59,985 nt of DNA. It comes from Bacilli bacterium (GTDB taxonomy: Bacteria > Bacillota_I > Bacilli_A > RFN20 > CAG-826). Below are positions 5,069-20,543 of the stretch, in pieces; position 1 is the stretch's first letter, and every line of letters starts with the position of its first letter. The notes beneath the pieces were generated by a model, which saw nothing but the letters and a program-made list of their open reading frames with translations, was not told the DNA's origin and did no database searches. Both the position numbers and the translations under genes were made by a program. Where the stretch lies: positions 1-59,985 of the forward strand of contig JAILIV010000008.1 of the NCBI GenBank assembly GCA_024695105.1. The letters are read 5' to 3'.

Positions 5069-6022
5069 TTAGCGTTTCTTTTTCTTCTTACTATTGGGGT
5101 TGTAGATGATGTGCTGGGCAACCCCGTCGACGATTTCGTTTTCGGGGTGGCATTCATGGAAGGTTTTGAGGACTTCCGGATCGTTTTTGAGCTCCTCGGG
5201 CAAAAGATTGAAGGCGAGGGGACTGGTCTTCATCGCGGCCAGGATGACCTCGGGGTCTTTTTTCATTTCCTCGGAAGCGTCGGCGATGGAATAGCCATCG
5301 TGGGTCACCGCGGCAAGGACCACTTCCTTGTCGTTCCTTAGCCGTTCGCTGGCGGCGGCGAAGTTGAAGTGGGTCCATTCGCCTTGGACGGAGGCCAATA
5401 CCACTTCCTTGTCGTCTTTTAGTTCATCGGAGGTGTAGGGGAGCGCGGCGTGATAGTTGCTCACGGCGGTCAGAGTGATCTCACGGTCAAAGCGGAACTC
5501 CTGCTTGAGCTCCTCAAAGTACATGCCCGCGGTTTTCATGGCCAAGAGGCACATGTCATGGTCATCAAGGTATTTTTCTAGACCGTGAAGGAACAGGGAA
5601 GAGCCATCGTGCTTCACGGAAGCCCAGACGATATCGCGGTTGTTTCTTAGCTCGTCGGAGATGAATTGGATGGCGGACCCACCGTGGGAGACGGCTTCTA
5701 ACGCCACGTCATAATCAAACCGGATTTCCTCGGGGTAAACGTAAAACCAGTCCGCGCAATATTTGATGGTGGATAACGCGAACTTCTTGTCGTGGAGCAA
5801 TTCGCCGGACATGCAACCTGGGAAATTGCCATGTTTTAGGGCTTCCCGCACGATTTGTTTGTCGTTTTGGAATTCCTCACAGACGTATTCCAAAGCGTCG
5901 GAATCCATCTTGACGGCTTTTAGGGCGAATTCCCTGTTTTTCCATAGGGAGGGCGGGAAATCGCTTCTTCTCTTCTTAAGTTTCTTAAGGACTTCTTTTT
6001 CAATGAACGCTTTGGAACTCAT
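5069..6022 (-). CDS. DUF4116 repeat protein
   Basis: Repeated 'L..DKEVVLAAV' units (ELKDDKEVVLASV, RLRNDKEVVLAAV, MKKDPEVILAAM). Confidence 0.85.
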   Translation of the reverse strand: MSSKAFIEKEVLKKLKKRRSDFPPSLWKNREFALKAVKMDSDALEYVCEEFQNDKQIVREALKHGNFPGCMSGELLHDKKFALSTIKYCADWFYVYPEEIRFDYDVALEAVSHGGSAIQFISDELRNNRDIVWASVKHDGSSLFLHGLEKYLDDHDMCLLAMKTAGMYFEELKQEFRFDREITLTAVSNYHAALPYTSDELKDDKEVVLASVQGEWTHFNFAAASERLRNDKEVVLAAVTHDGYSIADASEEMKKDPEVILAAMKTSPLAFNLLPEELKNDPEVLKTFHECHPENEIVDGVAQHIIYNPNSKKKKKR

Positions 6023-7935: not shown

Positions 7936-8715
7936 ATGAGAAAGCAACACCTTGGTTGGATCATTGGGGTCTTCGGGATCGTGGGCACCGTCTATGGCGC
8001 GTATTTGCTTATCTATCACCACAACCATGGCAATGGGCTTTCCGTTCCCGCCTTGATATTGCTCGTCACGGGCATCGTCGCGTTGATCTTTGCCTTATCG
8101 TTAGCCATTTCCGTTTACGTCTTCGACAAGAAGAAGGCAAAAAACGTGGAATCCGTGCCCGCGGAGAAAGAACAGAAAGCGGAAGAGAAAGTGGCTGAGC
8201 CAGTCCAAGTAGAAAAGGCGAGTGCGCTTTCTGCCGAGCCTGAGCCTGAACCAGAGCCCGAACCAGATGCTGAACCGGAAGAAGAACCAGAGCAAGAAGA
8301 TGTGGAGGATGAGGTTTCGTATGAACCAATTCCCCAAAGTTCTTACAGTCATTCCTCAAGGGTTTCCTATTCCACGGCCTACGTCAAATTGGTGGGCTAC
8401 GGCCCTTTGCTTCGCGTCGAGGGACCGCGCATCTTGGACATGCGCAGCAACACCTATTACCGGATTGAGGGCGACGTTGTCATGCAAGAGGGGTATGGCA
8501 TCCGTTACGAGATACGGGGGAATCAAATCCGGGACGCTTTTGGCGGGTACCTCTACGAATATAGCGGAAGCAACATCAACAAGGTGTTCGGCGGTTTCTA
8601 TGCCTCCGTCAGCGGTAGTTACATCACCCTTTACGATTCGTCCAAAAAATACGAAGTAACGGATTCGCTGTCCAAAAAGCAGATTCTCGTCGTGGTCGCG
8701 TTGTTATTTCAATAA
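7936..8715 (+). CDS. Hypothetical membrane protein with Pro-Glu linker
   Basis: Two N-terminal TM segments, an EPEPEPEPEP tract and a Tyr/Gly-rich C-terminal domain. Confidence 0.65.
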   Translation: MRKQHLGWIIGVFGIVGTVYGAYLLIYHHNHGNGLSVPALILLVTGIVALIFALSLAISVYVFDKKKAKNVESVPAEKEQKAEEKVAEPVQVEKASALSAEPEPEPEPEPDAEPEEEPEQEDVEDEVSYEPIPQSSYSHSSRVSYSTAYVKLVGYGPLLRVEGPRILDMRSNTYYRIEGDVVMQEGYGIRYEIRGNQIRDAFGGYLYEYSGSNINKVFGGFYASVSGSYITLYDSSKKYEVTDSLSKKQILVVVALLFQ

Positions 8716-10944: not shown

Positions 10945-12591
10945 ATGGAAGAAATCAATAATTTTATCAAAACCATCATGGAGAAGGACTTGGAGGAAGG
11001 GCGCGTCAAGCAGATCGTCACCCGCTTCCCTCCCGAGCCCAACGCCTATTTGCATATCGGCCACGCCCGCGCCATCGTCAACGACTTCGAATTGGCTCAG
11101 GCTTTTGGCGGATATACCAATCTCCGCTTCGATGACACCAACCCCGTCAATGAAGGGGCGGAATACGTTGGCGCGATCCTCGAGGATCTGAAGTGGCTCG
11201 GTTATACGCCGAAAAACGTTTTCTTCGGCAGCGACTATTTCGAGAAGACCTACGAGAAGGCCGTTCTCCTCATCAAGAAGGGCCTTGCCTATGTGGATGA
11301 TCTTTCTCCGGAAGAGACGACCGAATACCGTGGCACTTTGACCGAGCCGGGCAAGGAATCCCCGTGGCGTAACCGTAGTGTCGAGGAGAACCTTGATTTA
11401 TTCGAGAGGATGCGCAAGGGCGAATTCGGCAATGGCGAAAAGACGCTACGCGCCAAGATCGACATGTCTTCCAGCAACATCAATATGCGCGACCCCGTCA
11501 TGTACCGCATTTTGCACGTCCCTCATCACCGTCAGGGGAACAAGTGGTGCATTTACCCCATGTATGACTTCGCCCACCCCCTTCAGGACTCTTTCGAAGG
11601 GGTGACTCATTCCCTCTGCTCGTTGGAATACGATAACCATCGTCCTTTGTACGATTGGTTCATCGAGAAGTGTGAGATGGAGCACGTCCCGCATCAGTAT
11701 GAGTGGGGCCGTCTCAACATCACCAACACGATCATGAGCAAACGCTACCTCCGTCAATTGGTGGAAGGTCATTACGTTACCGGCTATGACGATCCGCGTA
11801 TGCCGACTTTGGTGGGCTTGAAGCGCCGTGGGTTCACCGCGGAAGCCATTAAGGCCTTCATCCTTTACACCGGTTTGTCCCGTATCAACTCCACGACGGA
11901 AGCGGATAACCTCGACCATTTCCTCCGCGAAGACCAAAAGCTCAAGGCCAAGCGCCCAATGGCGGTCCTTCATCCGTTGAAGTTGGTCATCGATAACTAT
12001 CCGGAAGGCAAGGTTGAATACCTGCCCGCGCCCAATAACGTCGAAAACGAGGAACTCGGCACCCGCGAGATTGCCTTTGGACGGGAAATCTACATTGAGC
12101 GGGAAGACTTCATCGAGGTGAAACCCAACAAGAAGTGGAAGAGGCTTTGCCTTGGCGAGGAAGTCCGTTTGATGAACGCCTACTTTGTCCGCGCCGAAAG
12201 CGTGGAAAAAGACGAAGAGGGGAACATCGTCTTGGTGCATTGCACCTATGACCCCGAAACCCGTTCGGGCAATTCCTTCGAAGGCCGTAAACCGAACGGA
12301 ACGATCCACTATGTGGAAGCAAGCACCGCCTTGCCCGCGACGTTTAACCTCTATGAGCCGCTGATCTTCGATGAGACGGAAGAGACCAAGGGCCTTTCCT
12401 TCTTGGAGCGTCTTAACCCGAACTCCTGGAACAAATGCGAAGGTTTCGTGGAAGGTAGTTTGGCCTCCACTAAGCCACTAGACCACTTCCAATTCATTCG
12501 CAATGGCTACTTCTGCACCGACAAGGAATCCCAGGAAGGGCATTTGGTTTTCAATTGCACGTGTCCCTTAAAATCTTCGTTCGCGAAATAA
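10945..12591 (+). CDS. glnS: Glutamine--tRNA ligase
   Basis: TRFPPEPNAYLHIGHA, RFDDTNP, CIYPMYDFAH, MSKR and FQFIRNGYF motifs. Confidence 0.96.
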   Translation: MEEINNFIKTIMEKDLEEGRVKQIVTRFPPEPNAYLHIGHARAIVNDFELAQAFGGYTNLRFDDTNPVNEGAEYVGAILEDLKWLGYTPKNVFFGSDYFEKTYEKAVLLIKKGLAYVDDLSPEETTEYRGTLTEPGKESPWRNRSVEENLDLFERMRKGEFGNGEKTLRAKIDMSSSNINMRDPVMYRILHVPHHRQGNKWCIYPMYDFAHPLQDSFEGVTHSLCSLEYDNHRPLYDWFIEKCEMEHVPHQYEWGRLNITNTIMSKRYLRQLVEGHYVTGYDDPRMPTLVGLKRRGFTAEAIKAFILYTGLSRINSTTEADNLDHFLREDQKLKAKRPMAVLHPLKLVIDNYPEGKVEYLPAPNNVENEELGTREIAFGREIYIEREDFIEVKPNKKWKRLCLGEEVRLMNAYFVRAESVEKDEEGNIVLVHCTYDPETRSGNSFEGRKPNGTIHYVEASTALPATFNLYEPLIFDETEETKGLSFLERLNPNSWNKCEGFVEGSLASTKPLDHFQFIRNGYFCTDKESQEGHLVFNCTCPLKSSFAK

Positions 12592-13056
12592 ATGGCCGAT
12601 ACGATGCGCGACGTTTTCCTTTATTACAGCCACACCGGTTCGACCGAGGTGGTGGCGAAGAAACTAGAAGAAACAGGGGTGGAGACGCGAAAAGTCCGCC
12701 CGTTGAAAGAGTTACCCAAGTCCTTCTTTTGGAGCGTCATGACGGGTGGCTTTTTGGCCGGGCTAGGCGTGAAGTCGAAGCTTTCGGTATTCGATGACGA
12801 CCTCTCCGGATATGATCGCGTCTTCATCGGAGGGCCGATCTGGAACGATCGTTTGTCTTGCCCCATCAATGGGCTTTTGGCCCGTTTGGACTTGAAGGGC
12901 AAAAAGGTCGTTTTCCTTTTGTGCTCTGGCAGCGGTAAAGCGGGAAAGGCGACGTCTTGGATCCAAAAGCATTTCCCCGAGGCCGAGGTGTTGGTCTTCA
13001 AGGAACCGAAGAAGTACCCTGAGGAATTAGAAAAGCTCCAGGTTCTTTATGAATAA
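12592..13056 (+). CDS. Flavodoxin-like protein
   Basis: YYSHTGSTEVVA FMN-binding loop; YDRVFIGGPIW. Confidence 0.8.
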   Translation: MADTMRDVFLYYSHTGSTEVVAKKLEETGVETRKVRPLKELPKSFFWSVMTGGFLAGLGVKSKLSVFDDDLSGYDRVFIGGPIWNDRLSCPINGLLARLDLKGKKVVFLLCSGSGKAGKATSWIQKHFPEAEVLVFKEPKKYPEELEKLQVLYE

Positions 13057-13732
13057 GGACTACGAAACGTTGGCCGCGTTTTGGGACGCGGCATTCCAAG
13101 ACGATGGCTTCGAGCAGGCCTTTCCTTTGGAAAACCCCGAGGAGTTGGCCCCCTCTCCGAAACTTGCCGAGGCCTTAAAAGGGTTTCGCGATTGTAAGCG
13201 CGTTTTGGATTATGGGTGTGGCAATGGCTGGGCATCGATTATCATGGCTCGTAGCGGTGCCAAGGACATCACTTCCGTCGACGTGTCTCCCAACGCGATT
13301 ACCTTGCTACAAAAGACGGCTACCGCCTTCTCCTGCGCGGATCGAATCGAAGGGGAGGTCATCTCTCCGGATTGGCTTTGCGGCGTGGAGTCGGATACCT
13401 TTGATGGGCTCTTCAGTTCCAACGTGCTTGACGTCGTTCCGTTAGAGATGGCCGAAAAGATCATCGAGGAGTGCGCCCGGGTATGCAAAAGTGGGGCCCG
13501 CGTAGTCTTCTCCTTTAATTTTTACATGGACCCTGAAACGATGGCTAAGCGGGGATTCGAAGTGCGAGGACGCAACGTCTACTCTCAGGGCGTGTTGCGT
13601 CTGGTGGCACTCCAAGATGATGAGTGGAAACAGCGGTTTGATGGCCATTTCGTCGTGGAGTCATTGGATTATTTCGCTTGGCCGGGCGAGGCAAAAGAGA
13701 CCCGAAGGTTATTCGTTTTACGCAAGGTTTAA
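13049..13732 (+). CDS. Class I SAM-dependent methyltransferase
   Basis: VLDYGCGNG motif I; overlaps the stop of the upstream gene. Confidence 0.88.
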   Translation: MNKDYETLAAFWDAAFQDDGFEQAFPLENPEELAPSPKLAEALKGFRDCKRVLDYGCGNGWASIIMARSGAKDITSVDVSPNAITLLQKTATAFSCADRIEGEVISPDWLCGVESDTFDGLFSSNVLDVVPLEMAEKIIEECARVCKSGARVVFSFNFYMDPETMAKRGFEVRGRNVYSQGVLRLVALQDDEWKQRFDGHFVVESLDYFAWPGEAKETRRLFVLRKV

Positions 13733-13819
13733 TTGCGCATTTCGCGCCGATTTGCGAAGAAAAACGCTCTTTTTGCCATATTTTGCGCCAAAGGGGATTC
13801 GCTTTGTCAGGAAAAAACC

Positions 13820-13849
13820 TTCACGCGTGCCAGCGCCTTGCGCTATACT
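13820..13849 (+). promoter_or_regulatory. Sigma-A-type promoter for the ncRNA/RT-LRR unit
   Basis: TTCACG-18 nt-TATACT; predicted +1 at ~13856 coincides with the first base of the inverted repeat. Confidence 0.55.
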
Positions 13850-13855
13850 TTCTTT

Positions 13856-13947
13856 GGTGGTTAGCATTTCTTAATTGAAAGCCTCAGCAAGCGTCTTCGG
13901 TACGTCCTACCGCTTAGAGGTTGGGTTCTGTTTCCATAGTAACCACC
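13856..13947 (+). ncRNA. Putative retron msr-msd-like RNA
   Basis: Terminal 8-bp inverted repeat GGTGGTTA (13856-63)/TAACCACC (13940-47); unpaired G13864 in a TTAGC context and G-TAA on the 3' arm, as in retron Ec86; internal hairpins TTTC-ttaatt-GAAA and a cUUCGg loop; directly upstream of a retron-like RT. Confidence 0.6.
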
Positions 13948-13969
13948 TTTTTTTAAAGGAAGAGTGCGT

Positions 13970-16900
13970 ATGGCTGGTCATTATGCTCCCAAAAAACCAA
14001 CGGATCCGTTGGTGCGTCTGAAATCCCGTTTGGAGGGCTTCATTGACAGTCCAGACCGCTACGTATATAGCTTCGAGATTCGGGAGAAAACCCGCACTCG
14101 TAGCATTTTGACCTACAACAAGGCCAGTGATTTTGGTATGCGGTTGAGGAGGGATCACGAGCAGTTGCTCGAGGCCTTTATGGTGAATTTCGCTGCGCGG
14201 AATCCCCATTCGTTCGCCTACCATAAATCCATTTGCTGCCGCGATGCCCTTACGGATCACCTTCGTTCCACCCATTTCATCAAGTTGGACATCCATCACT
14301 TTTTCGAAAGTATCTCCCCCGAGCTTTTCTTTGCCCATTACGGCGAGCGGTTCAACCCTCTTTGGAAAGGGTTGCTCCAAGGATGCTTTTATAAAGACGC
14401 CTTGAGCATTGGCTTTGTGACTTCCCCCGCATTAAGCGATTTCTATATGGGTAAGTTCGACGAGGCGATGGAACAAAAAATCCGGAACAACCCCAGACTT
14501 CATTATTCCCGTTATTGCGACGACATCCTTCTTTCCAGCGAGGAAGAGGGGAAAGAAACCTTGGATGCCCTATTCGAGGAGACCGTCGCGTTATTGGGCG
14601 AATTTGGCCTTTCCCTGAACGAGAAGAAGACCTCCCGGGTCAGCTTGTCGCTAGAGAAACACAATTCCATCTCCTTCCTTGGGCTGAACCTTTCCAAGAA
14701 AAACGAAGTCGACAACAAAGTCACCATCTCCAAACGTTATATCCTTTTCCTCCTTTTCCTCATCGAGAAGAACCGGAGATACGATGGCGGATGCCAAGGG
14801 CTGGTGAACGAAATCAATTCGCGCGTGGCCTATTTGGCGTATAACTCGCCCGTTTCCTTCGCCCGTTTCCAAAAGAAGCATGTCAACCGTTATGGCGTTA
14901 CCTATGACTTCGTTCCCAAAGAGGCCAAGGAGCGCCATGTTTCCCATACCGCGGAGCAGATCACGGGTTGGGAGGAATACGCCAATCAGTTCAAGATGAA
15001 CATCCACGCCAACATCGTCAGTGGCGTGACGGACAAACTCATCATGCGCGATGGGATCGAAATCGAGAAATACATTGGGAAAGAGAAAGAAGTCCGCATC
15101 CCCGATTTCGTCCATAGCATCGCCAAAGGCGCCTTCGAGCGTTCTTCCGTCCGCAAGGTAATTTTGAACAAACGTCTGAAAAACATCGGCAATGATGCGT
15201 TCTCCACTTGCCCCGAGCTAGAGGAAGTGGTGATGTCGGAATCCCTTCAATCCGTGGGTATGTTGGCGTTTAGGGATTGCCCCAAACTCCGTAGGATTTC
15301 CTTCCCTGCGACGTTAAAAGAACTTGGTTCCGGGGCCTTCCGCGACTGCGATTCATTGGAATCCGTGGATTTAAGCCAAACCGCCATCGTCACGCTGGCC
15401 CATGCGTTTAAGGAATGTCCCTCCCTTAAGGAAGTGCGCCTCCCGCAAACGTTAACTTCTATCGACCTTTATTGCTTCGAACGTTGCGTCAACCTTAAGG
15501 AAATCAACCTTCCCGATTCGTTGGAACGTCTGGGCGCCTCCGTGTTTGAGGCTTGCCATAGTTTGCGTGAGGTGGCTCTTCCCGAAAAACTGCTTGGCAT
15601 GGATGACCGTGTCTTCTATGGCTGCCACCATTTGCGGAAAGTAACGGTGGGCAAAAGCCTCGTGAGCATTCCCGTCGACGCCTTCGGTTCGTGCGAAGCG
15701 TTGAGGGAACTCATCGTCAGCCCCGATAATCTCGAATACGAAGTAGTGGATCGGTGCCTTTTGGAGCGCCATAGCAAAACCCTCGTCTTCCCTCTCCCTG
15801 GCGTGGACAAGATTCCGTCGAAAGCCAAAGCCATTGGTCCTGGCGCTTTCCGCGGTCGCGCTTTGCGTTCCATCGTCGTGCCCGAGGGCGTGACATCCAT
15901 TGGGGCGAACGCCTTTTCCAGCAACCCGTTGCTTGAAAAAGTCACGCTGCCTGAATCCTTAACCCTTCTTTCCAAGCAGGCTTTCATGGATTGCGTGAGT
16001 TTAAAGGAAATTGTTTTGCCCAAAGGGATCACCTTCTTGGCCGCCTCTTTGTTCGAAGGGTGCTTCCGCCTCGCCTCGGTTCAATGCCAAGGACCCATCA
16101 CCCACATTGGCGAGCGTGTGTTCGCCGGCGCTTCTTCTTTGGAGAGTTTCGCCATTCCCGAGACGGTGGAGTTCATCGGCTACCGCGCCTTTGCCAACAC
16201 TCACCTTCGTGAAGTGCGCATCCCCGCTGGCGTGCGTGAAATCCGCCCCTTTGCCTTTGCAGGATGCCAAAATTCCATCACGCGGTTCGAAGTGGACCCG
16301 TTAAATACCATTTACGATAGCCGCGATGGCTGCAACGCCTTGATTCGGAAGAAACACACCGTGCTGCTTTTTGGCTGCGCGAAGAGTTTCATTCCAAGCG
16401 GCGTGATCACCATCGCCCCTGGCGCCTTCGCGGATTGCCATGGCTTAAAGGGGGCGGTGGAAGGATTGCACGTCACGGTTATCGGCGCCCGCGCCTTCAT
16501 GGGCTGCGATAACGTGGAGAAGATGTGGTTCCCCGAGTTGCAACGCCTAGGAGACAAAGCCTGCTATGGCATGGAGCGGTTGGAGGAATTCAACCTCTAC
16601 GATTCGCTCGTGTCCATCGGCGGCGAGTGTTTTTCCAATTGCCAGAGCCTCGCTTCCGTCCGCATTCCTTCTTCCCTTGCTTCCATCGGGGGGCAGACGT
16701 TCCAGAATTGTCGTGCTCTCACCGAGATTTCGTTGGGCAACTTCTCCATCTCCTTAGATCCAAAGCTATTCACGGGTTGCGTGAGTCTGCGGAAAATCGT
16801 TTTCGAAGGCGAGCATCCGTCCTATCTGCCCAACAACAACAACCTGTTGATCGAACGGCGTAACAAACAAGTCGTCTTCGCCGTCCACGGGGTCGAGACG

Positions 16901-19225
16901 ATTCCCGAAGGCGTGTTGGGCCTCCATCCCAAATGCTTCATCTCCGGCGCCGACATCAAACGTTTGGTCTTGCCTTCCACCCTTCAATCCTTCCCACAAC
17001 TTCGGAACCTTCGGAATCTGGAAGAGGTGGTATTCCCCGAGGAGTTGCCAGGTCTCATTTCCGGTTACGTCCTTTCTCTCGCCCATTGCGTGAGCCTGAA
17101 GCGCTTTGTCTTCCCATCATATGGGGATAAGGGTTTCTACGATGATCGGCTCATTCCGGCCCAGTGGCATCTTGGGTCGATGTTCGAAGGGTGCGTCAAC
17201 TTGGAGGAAGTCGTTCTTCCCGAGGGTATTGAGGTCATCCAAGACCGCGCATTCCAGGGATGTAGCAACCTCAAATCCATCCGCATTCCTTCCAGCGTCC
17301 GCCTAATCGGTGAACGTGCGTTCTATGACTGCGCCAACCTGGAGGAAGTCGTTTTGCCTTCTTCTTTGGAGAAAATCGGCTCCCTGGCCTTCGCGGGATG
17401 CAAAAAGTTGGCGTCCTGCGTTTTGCCCGAAACGGTGAAGGAGATCGGCAATTTCGCCTTCTTTGAGACGGCGATCCCCGAAGTCGTCATTCCCCCTAGC
17501 GTGCAGAAGTTTGGCCGCGCGGTGTTCGCGTGGGGCCAACTAAAGTCCATCAAAGTGGAACCGGGCATCGTTTCCTTCTACCATGACGTCGACGGACGTT
17601 ATCTGATCCAGGACGAAAACGGTCTATTGCTCGTTGCCTGCGGAAACGAAGTGCCCGAAGGAACCAAAGCCATTTCTTCGTTGACCTATTCCCATAACGA
17701 AAGCATCACGGAGCTTAAGGTCCCCGAGGGCGTCACGTCTATCCATTCGGACGCTTTCTCGGGATGCGAAAACCTTCGTAGCGTATCGTTGCCTTCTTCG
17801 TTGAAGACCATCGCCCCTTCCGCGTTTGCCTCTTGTGAAAAGCTGGAGGAAGTGTCCTTCGGCAATCAATTGGAGAGCATTGGACATCACGCGTTCGTGG
17901 ATTGCGCAAGCCTTAGGGAACTTCAGTTCCCAGAATCGCTTCAAAGCGTGGATGCCTCCGCCTTCTCCGGATGTTTGTCCTTGCGGAAAGCCGCCTTGCC
18001 GCGGGGCGTGCGGTATATCGGCGCGAAGGTATTCAATTCCTGCCCCTTGCAGTCTCTCTACGTTTATAAGGAGTGGGACCTTGACGTCGCGCGTTCGAAT
18101 TCCTTTGAAGGAATCGCTAACCCTGCGCGAGAGATCATCGTGGAAAAAGGCAACCCCATATACCACGATGGCAATGGCAGCAACGTTCTTTGCTTCGGAA
18201 GCAAATTGATTCTTGGTTCCGAAAAGGGAAGCATTCCCGAAGGAACCACGATCATCGGGGATTCCGCCTTTGCGGGGTGCAAGGCGATTTCCTCCATCGC
18301 CTTCCCCAAGAGCCTTGAACGGATCGCCGGTTCCGCCTTTGCGGGGACCAACCTTAAGGAAATCGTTTTGAACGAAGGGCTCTTCATGATTGGGGATAAA
18401 GCATTCGACGGTAGCCCATTGCTCACGTCGGTTTCCATACCCTCCACCGTGAAAGAGATCTCGCGTAGCGCCTTCGGCAACTGCCCAAGCTTAAAGCATC
18501 TTTCCGTGAAGGAAGGAAATCCATGGTTTTCTTCACGCAACGAGACGATTTACGGTCCCGACCAAGGGACGCTGCAACTTGGTTGCGCAGGATCGAGCAT
18601 CGACGAAAAGACGGAGCGGATTTCCCCCTGCGCCTTCCTATACGTTCCTTTGGAGGAGATCCATATCCCCTTCACCGTCGCCAAGCTTGCCGAGAATTCG
18701 TTCGACGCCCGCGCCACGAAGCGCGTCACCATCGATGCCAAGAACCCGTATTACAACAGCGTGGACGCCGAAAACGGCATCGTATCCACCCGCGAGCATA
18801 AACTTCTTTGGGCTTGCGCGGAAACCAAGATGAAGGAGGGGCTGAAAGCCATCGGCGGAAGCGCCTTCTCCAGGGTTTCCAACGCGGGAGAATTGGTCTT
18901 ACCCGCATCCGTGACTTACGTTGCGCGAGACGCGTTTGGATATGGTCCCGACATTTCCTCCATTACCGTGGAGGAGGGGAACCCCGTCTTTGATAGCCGC
19001 GATGGATGCAACGCCCTGATCATCACCCGCATCAACAAGGCGATGCTAACCTGTAAGCAGACGAAACTTCCGGAAGGGGTTGAACTTCTTTCGGAAATCG
19101 TCCAGCCGGAGGAGCCTGGTCATTCGCTGTCATTGAGTTGGAGTTTGGATGAGCGTGAGCAACTGTTCCGTAGTTTAAGCGTTGGCGGAGAACGCCTTGC
19201 CAATCCAAGCGATCTGCCATTCTAA
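13970..19225 (+). CDS. Retron-like reverse transcriptase fused to a long BspA/LRR_5 leucine-rich-repeat region
   Basis: N-terminal RT motifs SFAYHKS, DHLRSTHFIKLDIHHFFESI, LSIGFVTSP, YSRYCDD (YCDD at 14513-14524) and SFLGL; from ~15090 onward dozens of 'L..v.lP..l..Ig..AF..C' repeats; AAAGGA RBS; no signal peptide. Confidence 0.9.
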   Translation: MAGHYAPKKPTDPLVRLKSRLEGFIDSPDRYVYSFEIREKTRTRSILTYNKASDFGMRLRRDHEQLLEAFMVNFAARNPHSFAYHKSICCRDALTDHLRSTHFIKLDIHHFFESISPELFFAHYGERFNPLWKGLLQGCFYKDALSIGFVTSPALSDFYMGKFDEAMEQKIRNNPRLHYSRYCDDILLSSEEEGKETLDALFEETVALLGEFGLSLNEKKTSRVSLSLEKHNSISFLGLNLSKKNEVDNKVTISKRYILFLLFLIEKNRRYDGGCQGLVNEINSRVAYLAYNSPVSFARFQKKHVNRYGVTYDFVPKEAKERHVSHTAEQITGWEEYANQFKMNIHANIVSGVTDKLIMRDGIEIEKYIGKEKEVRIPDFVHSIAKGAFERSSVRKVILNKRLKNIGNDAFSTCPELEEVVMSESLQSVGMLAFRDCPKLRRISFPATLKELGSGAFRDCDSLESVDLSQTAIVTLAHAFKECPSLKEVRLPQTLTSIDLYCFERCVNLKEINLPDSLERLGASVFEACHSLREVALPEKLLGMDDRVFYGCHHLRKVTVGKSLVSIPVDAFGSCEALRELIVSPDNLEYEVVDRCLLERHSKTLVFPLPGVDKIPSKAKAIGPGAFRGRALRSIVVPEGVTSIGANAFSSNPLLEKVTLPESLTLLSKQAFMDCVSLKEIVLPKGITFLAASLFEGCFRLASVQCQGPITHIGERVFAGASSLESFAIPETVEFIGYRAFANTHLREVRIPAGVREIRPFAFAGCQNSITRFEVDPLNTIYDSRDGCNALIRKKHTVLLFGCAKSFIPSGVITIAPGAFADCHGLKGAVEGLHVTVIGARAFMGCDNVEKMWFPELQRLGDKACYGMERLEEFNLYDSLVSIGGECFSNCQSLASVRIPSSLASIGGQTFQNCRALTEISLGNFSISLDPKLFTGCVSLRKIVFEGEHPSYLPNNNNLLIERRNKQVVFAVHGVETIPEGVLGLHPKCFISGADIKRLVLPSTLQSFPQLRNLRNLEEVVFPEELPGLISGYVLSLAHCVSLKRFVFPSYGDKGFYDDRLIPAQWHLGSMFEGCVNLEEVVLPEGIEVIQDRAFQGCSNLKSIRIPSSVRLIGERAFYDCANLEEVVLPSSLEKIGSLAFAGCKKLASCVLPETVKEIGNFAFFETAIPEVVIPPSVQKFGRAVFAWGQLKSIKVEPGIVSFYHDVDGRYLIQDENGLLLVACGNEVPEGTKAISSLTYSHNESITELKVPEGVTSIHSDAFSGCENLRSVSLPSSLKTIAPSAFASCEKLEEVSFGNQLESIGHHAFVDCASLRELQFPESLQSVDASAFSGCLSLRKAALPRGVRYIGAKVFNSCPLQSLYVYKEWDLDVARSNSFEGIANPAREIIVEKGNPIYHDGNGSNVLCFGSKLILGSEKGSIPEGTTIIGDSAFAGCKAISSIAFPKSLERIAGSAFAGTNLKEIVLNEGLFMIGDKAFDGSPLLTSVSIPSTVKEISRSAFGNCPSLKHLSVKEGNPWFSSRNETIYGPDQGTLQLGCAGSSIDEKTERISPCAFLYVPLEEIHIPFTVAKLAENSFDARATKRVTIDAKNPYYNSVDAENGIVSTREHKLLWACAETKMKEGLKAIGGSAFSRVSNAGELVLPASVTYVARDAFGYGPDISSITVEEGNPVFDSRDGCNALIITRINKAMLTCKQTKLPEGVELLSEIVQPEEPGHSLSLSWSLDEREQLFRSLSVGGERLANPSDLPF

Positions 19226-19233
19226 CAATTATG

Positions 19234-19270
19234 AAAATAGCGGCGCTTTGCAATGAACGCCGCTTTCTTT
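19234..19270. terminator. Bidirectional terminator between RT-LRR and TIR-LRR
   Basis: AGCGGCG (19239-45)/CGCCGCT (19258-64) stem with an A-run before and a T-run after. Confidence 0.65.
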
Positions 19271-19292
19271 TTCGCCTGGTTTTGCGCTGATT

Positions 19293-20543
19293 TTAGTGTT
19301 TTTTGTTATAGGGAACTTCGTAAAGAAGGATGTCTTCGCCACTTTCCTGACGCTGGTAAAGGAATCCGTTTTTGGAATAGAAGTGGGCGTTATTCGGATC
19401 CACCTCAAACCATTGCAGGGCATAGCAACGGTCGAACGCGGCCTTGCCGATGAACGCGACTTTGGGGCCGATGTGGACCCGTTTGAGGTTATGGCAACGG
19501 TAGAATGCGCTGTTGCCGACGTGCTCGGCCTCAATATGGATTTCCTCAAGCCCTTCGCAGGTGGAGAATGCCTCATCGCCGATGTAGTCGAACTGCGCGA
19601 TGTCGATGTCCACCAAATTGGTGCAGCACATGAACACCGCGTCCCAACAGAGGATCTTATCGCTATTGGCGTTGGGCGTGTTTTTGAACGAGCGCAAGTT
19701 GGCGCAGTGATAGAAGGCGTAGTCGTTGAGCGAATGGGCGGCGACGTGGGCGGAAAGCAGGTTGGCGCAATTGGAGAAGGCGCAGCGTCCCATCGCTGTC
19801 TTCGCGTTGGGTTTTGTTTTGAAAGCATCCAAATCCTCCAGTTCGATGGATTCGATCATCGGATCGGTGGGGTAGTCCGCGTAATACCATCCCTTTTCCT
19901 TATATGAGGTCCAAATCTTGGGTAACTCCATGGTGGAGGAGCTGATTTTCTCATATCGTTGTTTGGCGTCCATGCTGACGGGCAAAAACAATACGGAAGG
20001 CGGGAAACAGGATTTAATGAATTCGGCACGCTCTGGGTCGATGGCAACGCCGTTTTCGAGAAGGATATCGACCATCTCGCAGGCCCCGAAGACCTTGCCT
20101 TTGACGCTTTGCCCTTTGTGGGTGTAGTCGGAAGTCATCGGAAGGTTCAGGGAGAAAATGGCTTTGCCATGGTTCTTGGCGTATTCGAGTTCGTCAAAGA
20201 CGGCGTCGGAAAGAAGGGAGGTCTCGGATACGTAGAACAAAACGCCACGGCATACGGCGGGTCCCATGAATTTGTTCGCGACGTCGCGCCAATCCCTGCC
20301 CGCGGGGATGCCGCGGTCATACCAAAGATTCAGCCCGTTTTCCTGTAAGGCAAAGATGTCGCGGTAGACGAGTTTGTAGTCTCTGTGGGAATAGGAAACG
20401 AAGTAATAGTCCCTCGAGTGGACGGGAGGAAGATAGGAAGGGGGAATCATCGAGAGGTCGTTGGTTTCGATGATGCCTACCTTGATCTTGGTCTGGTCGG
20501 GGACGGGGAGGCTTTGTAGTAACTCAAGCGAGATGAAATCCAT
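19293..20543 (-). CDS. TIR-domain protein with C-terminal BspA/LRR_5 repeats
   Basis: TIR motifs YFVSYSHRD, LWYDRGIPAGRDW and SDAVFDELEYA (conserved Glu); C-terminal AFSNCANL/AFYHCANL/AFSTCEGL/AFYRCHNL/AFDRCYAL repeats. Confidence 0.88.
   Translation of the reverse strand: MDFISLELLQSLPVPDQTKIKVGIIETNDLSMIPPSYLPPVHSRDYYFVSYSHRDYKLVYRDIFALQENGLNLWYDRGIPAGRDWRDVANKFMGPAVCRGVLFYVSETSLLSDAVFDELEYAKNHGKAIFSLNLPMTSDYTHKGQSVKGKVFGACEMVDILLENGVAIDPERAEFIKSCFPPSVLFLPVSMDAKQRYEKISSSTMELPKIWTSYKEKGWYYADYPTDPMIESIELEDLDAFKTKPNAKTAMGRCAFSNCANLLSAHVAAHSLNDYAFYHCANLRSFKNTPNANSDKILCWDAVFMCCTNLVDIDIAQFDYIGDEAFSTCEGLEEIHIEAEHVGNSAFYRCHNLKRVHIGPKVAFIGKAAFDRCYALQWFEVDPNNAHFYSKNGFLYQRQESGEDILLYEVPYNKKH

Follow-up and report, generated by a model that had tools for sequence, protein, structure and literature searches.

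Retrons usually consist of a reverse transcriptase (RT), an RNA and an enzymatic toxin. In several of the catalogued types the effector is fused to the RT, as in the RT-Toprim of type I-C (Ec67/Eco2), the RT-protease of type XI, the RT-TIR of type XII and the RT-DUF3800 of type VII-A1 (PMC7736814). The RNA, or msr-msd, is defined by terminal inverted repeats (a1/a2), one to three msr hairpins, an msd stem-loop and a branching G, and the RT bears the signatures NAxxH in region X and VTG in region Y (Mestre et al. 2020, PMC7736814). The present work deals with a gene found in a 59,985-nt stretch of DNA from a Bacilli bacterium (the window: assembly GCA_024695105.1, contig JAILIV010000008.1, positions 1 to 59,985), the product of which joins a retron-type RT to a very long array of leucine-rich repeats (LRR) and which is called here RT-LRR. 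The locus is likely to be a single-gene retron-type RT-RNA element, as yet uncatalogued and with a new, non-enzymatic module, and it is probably anti-phage. From the letters of the sequence alone, the locus had already been proposed to encode a fusion of a retron-type RT with an LRR array and to have an msr-msd-like RNA of its own (the original prediction), and the proposal is borne out by profiles, predicted fold and the covariation of the RNA. The architecture had also been taken for an undescribed one; it fits none of the 13 catalogued retron types and, in the literature, no description was found of a retron or RT defence system with an LRR (BspA) fusion or with a mimic of the C-terminal tip of SSB (single-stranded DNA-binding protein).

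With the RT-fused retrons the locus shares a single polypeptide in which a retron RT comes first and a module follows at the C-terminal, effector position, a non-coding RNA (ncRNA) immediately upstream on the same strand, and the fact that no other gene is required, but the module is in this case a non-enzymatic LRR_5 array of ~1,300 aa followed by an SSB-type tip. RT-LRR is no member of those types, because its RT scores only ~50-53 bits against their PADLOC profiles. The locus also resembles retron type XIII (Mx162, Mx65, Sa163), in which a retron is accompanied by a large solenoid repeat protein with a wide interaction surface; the repeat protein of type XIII, however, is encoded by a separate gene, is alpha-helical (HEAT/ARM) and comes with a nuclease-like protein, whereas the LRRs described here belong to the same polypeptide as the RT and are not accompanied by an enzyme. 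The RT-LRR family appears to swap the retron toxin for a giant LRR array and an SSB-type docking peptide.

The reading frame of the gene is uninterrupted, as first read, and extends between a start at 13964 (GTG) or 13970 (ATG) and a stop at 19225, the product having 1751 aa from the ATG and colinear homologues. An identical 1751-aa product is present in a public protein collection and, in the window, composition is even over the gene, with ~52% GC. Pfam recognises RVT_1 (E 1.7e-20) and then LRR_5 (E 5.6e-213, 10 stretches). Neither a signal peptide nor a hydrophobic N-terminus nor a transmembrane-like segment was found in the protein, in agreement with the earlier reading, the highest 19-residue Kyte-Doolittle value being 1.7 and lying within an LRR strand. 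A search with residues 1-380 over the ENA, Logan, NCBI and JGI assemblies yielded 45 homologue clusters (defined at 90% identity), and the RVT_1 plus LRR_5 architecture is present in all of them (45/45), in proteins of 1603-1936 aa. The original prediction had raised the possibility of an assembly chimera at the RT-LRR junction. The junction is not an artefact of assembly, because the 45 clusters come from independent assemblies and align colinearly end to end; moreover, F341, H346, Y368 and P378 at the junction are conserved in an alignment of the N-termini of 16 family members.

The RT motifs listed in Table 1, together with SFAYH, were found at the places where they had been quoted and are conserved in that 16-member alignment. 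H97 and G238 are the most conserved residues of the retron regions X and Y and both are invariant in the RT-LRR family, in which region X reads D92-A93-x3-H97, with the Asn replaced and a spacing one residue longer than in NAxxH, and region Y reads [FY]-L-G, aligned to the VTG of Ec83. An H-x9-D spacing to the catalytic Asp had likewise been noticed and compared with that of Ec86; the spacing is present, but the retron matched in the HMMER alignment is Ec83. The active-site motif is YCDD in the window protein and YSDD in most family members and, judging from these motifs, the active site is catalytically intact.

As to placement, the RT is closest to the retron RTs by profile, by sequence and by predicted fold, so that the nearest relatives lie where the original prediction had put them. 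Among the best 25 PADLOC matches, all of at least ~50 bits, eight retron-RT profiles score 71-95 bits (II-A 95, I-B 93, Ec107-like 85 and I-A 74 among them), and the non-retron profiles Drt3a and UG17 score 73 and 51 bits. In NCBIfam the values are 108 bits for retron_St85_RT (cut-off 235), 61 for Drt3a and 49 for the group II RT. A sequence search of the PDB is led by Ec83, a type I-A RT, Ec86, Ec78, the St85 family and Eco8, with a group II maturase far below. The AlphaFold2 model of residues 1-400 has a mean predicted local distance difference test (pLDDT) score of 86, and each of the top 18 PDB matches given by Foldseek with the RT model is a retron RT (E values from 6e-18 to 2e-13). These matches span ~300-325 columns and so cover the entire RT, thumb included, and RTs of group II, of a diversity-generating retroelement (DGR), of DRT9 and of DRT2 rank below (E 1e-11 or weaker). 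Other identities were considered and rejected. A UG/Abi (DRT) identity is disfavoured by Drt3a and UG17, which fall below the eight retron profiles as a group, and by the folds of DRT2 and DRT9, which rank below all the retron RTs; a UG34 identity, by the lack of a UG34 profile among the best 25 PADLOC matches. Membership in the catalogued types I-XIII was rejected as well (best type profile 95 bits, St85 at 108 against a cut-off of 235): the RT stands outside all 13 types because it is too divergent and because none of them has an LRR module.

A promoter and a retron-like RNA had been claimed directly upstream of the gene, and both were found. The promoter-like site TTCACG-N18-TATACT puts the start of the transcript at about the first base of the closing helix of the RNA, and in homologues TATAAT-like -10 boxes lie 6-8 nt 5' of that helix. 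The RNA is bounded by an 8-bp inverted repeat (GGTGGTTA/TAACCACC) enclosing 76 nt. The same element lies upstream of the gene in six genome loci, with compensatory changes such as GGCGGTA/TACCGCC and TTGGTTA/TAACCAA. A covariance model (R1), built from seven copies and scanned over ~455 kb of loci, matches once in each of the 21 loci for which upstream DNA is available, on the gene strand and directly upstream. Most copies score 55-99 bits, and that of a stand-alone relative (L024) scores 40 bits; in distant members of the clade the matches are weak but correctly placed (L043 40 bits, L041 26, L044 25, L046 19). The window copy is the single R1 match both in the window and in the whole genome. 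Over 21 distinct rows, 97.6% of the cells are paired and double changes occur at all 12 modelled pairs (12/12), whereas none of 500 shuffles reaches any of these measures and slid registers pair 38-77%. The inner hairpins have a mean z of -1.7 against shuffles, and z is below -1.5 in 12 of 20 copies. The fold of the whole 237-nt intergenic region equals that of shuffles (z -0.01), the signal being confined to the 92-nt element and emerging through comparison, and an Rfam scan of 13000-20000, with E up to 10, gave chance matches only.

The element has the msr-msd layout, with inverted repeats, an msr hairpin, a variable stem-loop and a G after the 5' strand of the helix; G13864 is, by analogy, the candidate branch point of the multicopy single-stranded DNA (msDNA). 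The closing helix, the unpaired G after its 5' strand and the msr hairpin preceding a variable stem-loop are shared with Retron-Eco1 (Ec86) and the canonical msr-msd, and Ec86 likewise has UUAG...GUAA as the junction at its helix. Unlike them, the RNA has 92 nt, a single msr hairpin, its own motifs UUAAUU and AGCAAGC and no Rfam match and, in some relatives, it is parted from the gene by a U-tract or a terminator. As a template it would rank with the most compact of retron RNAs, a feature of practical use where retrons serve to produce DNA.

A cis-regulatory leader (attenuator or protein-binding RNA) would occupy the same position, the RT then using another substrate. Such a leader would agree with the U-tract after the closing helix and with the lack of an Rfam match, as well as with the full terminator hairpin of two distant relatives, in which a GC-rich hairpin and a U-tract lie between the RNA and the RT start codon (L041, 3377-3400 region; L046, 4965-4990 region). 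It is nevertheless very unlikely to be the whole function of the RNA: the layout fits the definition of msr-msd (Mestre et al. 2020, PMC7736814), an RNA of this kind is a known requirement of retron RTs, and the element accompanies the RT clade whatever lies downstream, over different fusions and in stand-alone forms. Returning to the template role, the U-tract and the terminators 3' of the RNA mean that it could be in excess over the mRNA by partial termination, and the terminators of L041 and L046 hint that it is mainly a separate short transcript. The public gene call of one homologue (P0013) starts within the RNA element (L032: RNA 7948-8058, called start 8001), and the first ~25 residues of this protein are probably a mis-annotation.

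The C-terminal module is the most variable part of the protein. RT identity between the homologues and the window protein is 49-60% (mean 56%), and their LRR parts, although colinear across ~1,300 residues, are only ~28% identical, that is, they diverge about twice as fast. In the AlphaFold2 model of the last 1000 residues (pLDDT 80) the array is made of short strands and coils, with blocks parted by low-confidence joints, and Foldseek returns only LRR proteins, with BspA-type surface proteins first and Toll-like receptors (TLRs) next. No enzymatic or toxic domain was found in this part, which has no PADLOC match. The likeness to TLRs, to plant and animal nucleotide-binding LRR proteins (NLRs) and to bacterial NLR-like proteins lies in a long LRR solenoid that forms the variable part of a conflict-type gene; unlike these immune receptors, RT-LRR has no NACHT/STAND ATPase, its repeats are of the BspA/LRR_5 class, and a role in recognition is conjectural. 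Two observations, the fast divergence and the lack of an enzymatic domain, suggest that the LRRs may recognise phage components. High variability between homologues would also be expected if the system were a DGR, with the RT copying a template repeat into the LRR-coding region. This is extremely improbable, given that nowhere in the gene, the window or the genome is any part of the RNA repeated (matches expected by chance reach 11 nt at best) and that the DGR RT falls below all the retron RTs in the fold search (2e-11 against 6e-18).

The extreme C-terminus, which the original prediction had overlooked, resembles the docking tip of SSB. The C-terminal hexapeptide of E. coli SSB is DDDIPF (PMC5872125); this tip recruits at least 17 partner proteins (PMC10018359) and caps an intrinsically disordered linker (PMC7293020). 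In the 45 RT-LRR homologues the consensus end, reached after a variable low-complexity stretch, is D-D-[LM]-P-F-COOH, the last residue being F in 45/45, position -2 P in 38/45, position -3 L, M or F in 43/45, position -4 D in 39/45 and position -5 D in 26/45, and the last ~40-44 residues of the window protein have a pLDDT of 27-32 in AlphaFold2. With bacterial SSB the family therefore shares a disordered, non-conserved linker capped by an acidic run and [LIM]-P-F; unlike SSB, it has no oligonucleotide/oligosaccharide-binding (OB) fold and no SSB homology, and any single-stranded DNA (ssDNA) would derive from the product of its own RT and not from the cell. In the genome of the window SSB ends in DSDDVPF and RT-LRR in NPSDLPF, and these two, with one probably spurious 100-aa frame, are the only open reading frames (ORFs) of at least 100 aa that end in D-[LMIVF]-P-F. 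In two related genomes with RT-LRR genes just one further real ORF bears the motif, namely SSB, whose end is DDDLPF. A general C-terminal tag of the lineage was hence rejected in three genomes, the motif being, among real ORFs, on SSB only and, in G000 and G075, on RT-LRR as well.

The tip also occurs in two further fusion architectures of the RT clade (four ~860-aa proteins and one 1103-aa protein), and it is not found on stand-alone RTs of the same clade. The ~860-aa form of L043:5001-7622 has an unassigned middle part and degenerate LRRs, and the 1103-aa form of L041:3446-6757 consists of RT, LRR_5 and an extension; in both, the upstream RNA and the DDLPF end are as in RT-LRR. Moreover, on two metagenome contigs repeat proteins lying beside RT-LRR carry an SSB-type tip (L031:4592-5371, L031:13052-14389 and L033:5902-7761), these being two DUF4116 proteins, with DDDDLPF and EDDLPF, and one LRR_5 protein, with DDEDFPF. 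Taken at the level of sequence, this suggests a wider class of proteins made of a repeat scaffold plus an SSB tip. The SSB-tip mimic, with its predicted docking, is probably central to the action of RT-LRR.

By analogy with characterised retrons, the RT would bind the P2 hairpin and the AGCAAGC motif, prime from the 2'-OH of the invariant G13864 and copy from just 5' of the P1 3' strand back toward AGCAAGC. The expected product is a single-stranded msDNA of ~50-60 nt with the variable hairpin, which would be kept bound to the protein. The LRR solenoid, the disordered linker and the D-D-L-P-F tip would hold the place of the usual toxic effector, and the LRR surface may recognise a phage protein. 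A particle of RT, msDNA and LRR would show ssDNA beside an SSB-type tip and, because it presents both together, could plug into, or compete for, SSB-docking proteins. Three outcomes can be envisaged for the tip: it may trap phage replication or recombination proteins seeking SSB-ssDNA, compete with SSB for host partners and so stall replication in the infected cell, or recruit nucleases that process the msDNA. Phage annealases depend on the host SSB tail (PMC13490951). Furthermore, phage SSB is the protein to which the RT systems Retron-Eco8 (10.1101/2025.11.11.687766), DRT4 (10.64898/2026.10.21.760695) and DRT10 (10.64898/2026.04.29.721553) respond, which provides a precedent for linking an ssDNA-making RT with SSB biology.

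A bolder version of this scheme, possible though rather doubtful, takes the particle for a mimic of SSB-coated ssDNA that would confer decoy immunity, maybe through abortive infection, with no enzymatic effector. Phage annealases, helicase loaders, nucleases or hijackers that bind SSB would be lured and read by the hypervariable LRR surface, and, once they had engaged, the tip would be set free, would saturate the pockets by which host SSB partners dock and would stall replication. Were it correct, the tips on the other RT fusions and on neighbouring repeat proteins would mark a wider family of SSB-tip decoys. If RT-LRR is anti-phage at all, it would represent, in bacteria, an LRR 'receptor' coupled to an RT, its output would proceed by mimicry of a replication hub protein and not by an enzyme, and it would join the RT systems that sense phage SSB (Retron-Eco8, DRT4 and DRT10).

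The sister stand-alone RTs belong to the same RT clade (40-47% identity) and have the same upstream RNA; unlike RT-LRR, they lack the LRRs and the SSB tip, and their effector is an enzyme encoded separately. Their RT gene is followed by an overlapping, translationally coupled gene for a NERD plus superfamily 1 (SF1) helicase protein, which matches the PADLOC entry 'RTasNERD-Hel', described as a partner of UG34 RTs (Mestre et al. 2022, PMC9226505), and one stand-alone sister adjoins an HNH protein, a subunit of a type I restriction enzyme and a MoxR-like pair with an ATPase. With a constant RT-RNA core and exchangeable effector modules, the clade therefore behaves like retrons in general.

According to the genome records, the hosts of the RT-LRR family are rumen and gut 'Erysipelotrichaceae' and 'Bacilli' metagenome-assembled genomes (MAGs). 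The genome of the window is itself a 1.48-Mb MAG, 85% complete, with one copy each of the RT and the RNA. Of 201 genomes from the same taxonomic family 4 carry RT-LRR, and the 9 genomes sampled from the genus itself all lack it, a distribution like that of defence genes; phage and plasmid collections contained no close relatives, only retron RTs at ~30% identity. The proteins bear a single public name, 'leucine-rich repeat protein', and PADLOC assigns no system to the locus, on account of which the family is invisible to current defence-finding tools.

Several observations weigh against the interpretation of RT-LRR as an anti-phage retron. The retron signatures are divergent (DAxxxH for NAxxH and FLG for VTG), and the placement in a 'retron clade' is one of nearest-neighbour scores, not of a reference phylogeny. 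Its RNA, at 92 nt, is short for a retron, the inner hairpin of the window copy is no more stable than shuffles (z +0.26), and the U-tract that follows could mean an additional role as attenuator. The window tip, NPSDLPF, is less acidic than most of its homologues. The killing or blocking step is a conjecture, since no catalytic effector was found, and the loci do not lie in obvious defence islands.

The last two points would suit a retron-derived but non-immune function, in which the SSB tip takes an RT-cDNA particle to replication or repair complexes in a housekeeping or host-association role. The small-genome rumen Bacilli are rich in LRR_5, DUF4116, Sel1 and FNIP repeat proteins, and the same tip is borne by the RT-less repeat proteins beside RT-LRR in L031 and L033. 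Such a function is nonetheless unlikely: sister RTs pair with a NERD-helicase of the defence catalogue, one of them standing beside restriction genes, the LRR part diverges fast, and the patchy distribution makes a poor fit to a housekeeping role. The anti-phage reading is retained as the probable one. The features of the locus are collected in Table 1.

Table 1. Features of the RT-LRR locus, with positions as numbered in the window and residues (aa) as numbered in the protein
Feature	Position	Strand	Basis or remark
Sigma-70-type promoter-like site TTCACG-N18-TATACT	13820..13849	+	Promoter scan; TATAAT-like boxes in homologues
Retron msr-msd-like ncRNA, 92 nt	13856..13947	+	Covariance model R1, 95.4 bits, E 8e-19
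P1 closing helix, 5' strand GGTGGTTA	13856-13863	+	Inverted repeat, six bases past the promoter-like site
Invariant G after P1 5' strand, candidate branching G	13864	+	21/21 rows
P2 hairpin: TTTC / loop TTAATT / GAAA	13867-13880	+	Conserved UUAAUU loop
Variable hairpin	13882-13920	+	Inner region, not alignable between copies
Conserved motif AGCAAGC	13886-13892	+	Column statistics
Invariant G before P1 3' strand	13939	+	21/21 rows
P1 closing helix, 3' strand TAACCACC	13940-13947	+	Inverted repeat
U-tract right after closing helix	13948..13954	+	Conserved run of T, in 14-20 of the 21 rows at each column
Ribosome-binding site AAAGGAAG	13955-13962	+	Directly after U-tract
Retron-type RT domain (fingers, palm, thumb)	13970..14900	+	aa 1 to ~310; profile, alignment and fold
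Region-X His motif ALTDH	14246-14260	+	H97 invariant
RT motif KLDI	14282-14293	+	D107 invariant in 16-member alignment
RT motif SIGFVTSP	14405-14428	+	S152-P153 invariant in 16-member alignment
RT motif YCDD	14513-14524	+	Y182-x-D184-D185 invariant in 16-member alignment
Region-Y Gly motif FLGL	14675-14686	+	L237, G238, L239 invariant
Linker from RT to LRR	14901..15091	+	aa ~311-374; first part of low confidence (pLDDT 61-66), then conserved beta-hairpin into first LRR
BspA-type LRR_5 array	15092..19039	+	aa ~375-1690; 23-residue period, ~8-9 blocks; Pfam E 5.6e-213
C-terminal linker, non-conserved, predicted disordered	19040..19210	+	aa ~1691-1747; sequence and length vary in homologues
C-terminal tip D-L-P-F and stop codon	19211..19225	+	Resembles SSB C-terminal docking tip
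GC-rich hairpin, stem AGCGGCG...CGCCGCT	19239..19264		Between the convergent RT-LRR and TIR-LRR genes

Downstream of RT-LRR, and separated from its stop by 67 bp, lies a convergent gene (19293-20543, minus strand) for a soluble 416-aa protein whose N-terminal part is a TIR_2 domain (E 1.6e-6, slightly above the threshold of Pfam) and whose C-terminal part consists of LRR_5 repeats; the GC-rich hairpin between both genes is likely a bidirectional terminator. The proximity and the shared LRR_5 class, together with the RT-TIR fusions known as retron type XII, would be consistent with a two-gene system in which TIR-LRR is the true, NAD-consuming effector, held in check or activated by the RT-LRR/msDNA complex. 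The neighbour is no conserved partner, however: tblastn found no TIR homologue in any other fetched locus, ~20 of them with an RT-LRR gene, the neighbourhoods of the homologues have no gene in common, and the convergent genes are not co-transcribed. The TIR-LRR protein has no PADLOC match, and a PDB sequence search with it gave LRR matches only. A two-gene system is decidedly improbable, and TIR-LRR may be an independent defence gene with the same LRR class as sensor. The other partner candidates (ADP-ribosyl glycohydrolase, PARG, DUF4116 and a 489/619-aa LRR protein) were rejected like TIR, each being present in few loci only.

Genes of the ADP-ribosyl glycohydrolase/PARG type occur within a few kb of RT-LRR-type genes in L031:920-1774, L041:8253-9053 and L033:14112-15668; with the TIR of the window, these three loci may reflect a recurring ADP-ribose/NAD theme, or chance. 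In the window, a 317-aa ORF (5069-6022, minus strand) resembles the DUF4116 repeat proteins found repeatedly near RT-LRR in other loci, with 29% identity to the L031 protein, and lacks the SSB tip. Upstream of RT-LRR, a glutaminyl-tRNA synthetase (GlnRS) gene (10945-12591, plus strand) is present in 3 of 13 sampled genomes of the genus, with 86-88% identity and different neighbours in each; by this comparison, the chromosome region around it is variable. In the analysis of empty sites the borders of the RT-LRR insertion are undefinable, because the flanks are not syntenic in same-genus genomes. Finally, another uncharacterised RT system was observed in the same bacterial family (L063, G099:C1:305000-313000), consisting of a 648-aa protein with an N-terminal extension of ~340 aa and a C-terminal retron-like RT, which adjoins a P-loop ATPase and a nucleotidyltransferase-like gene.

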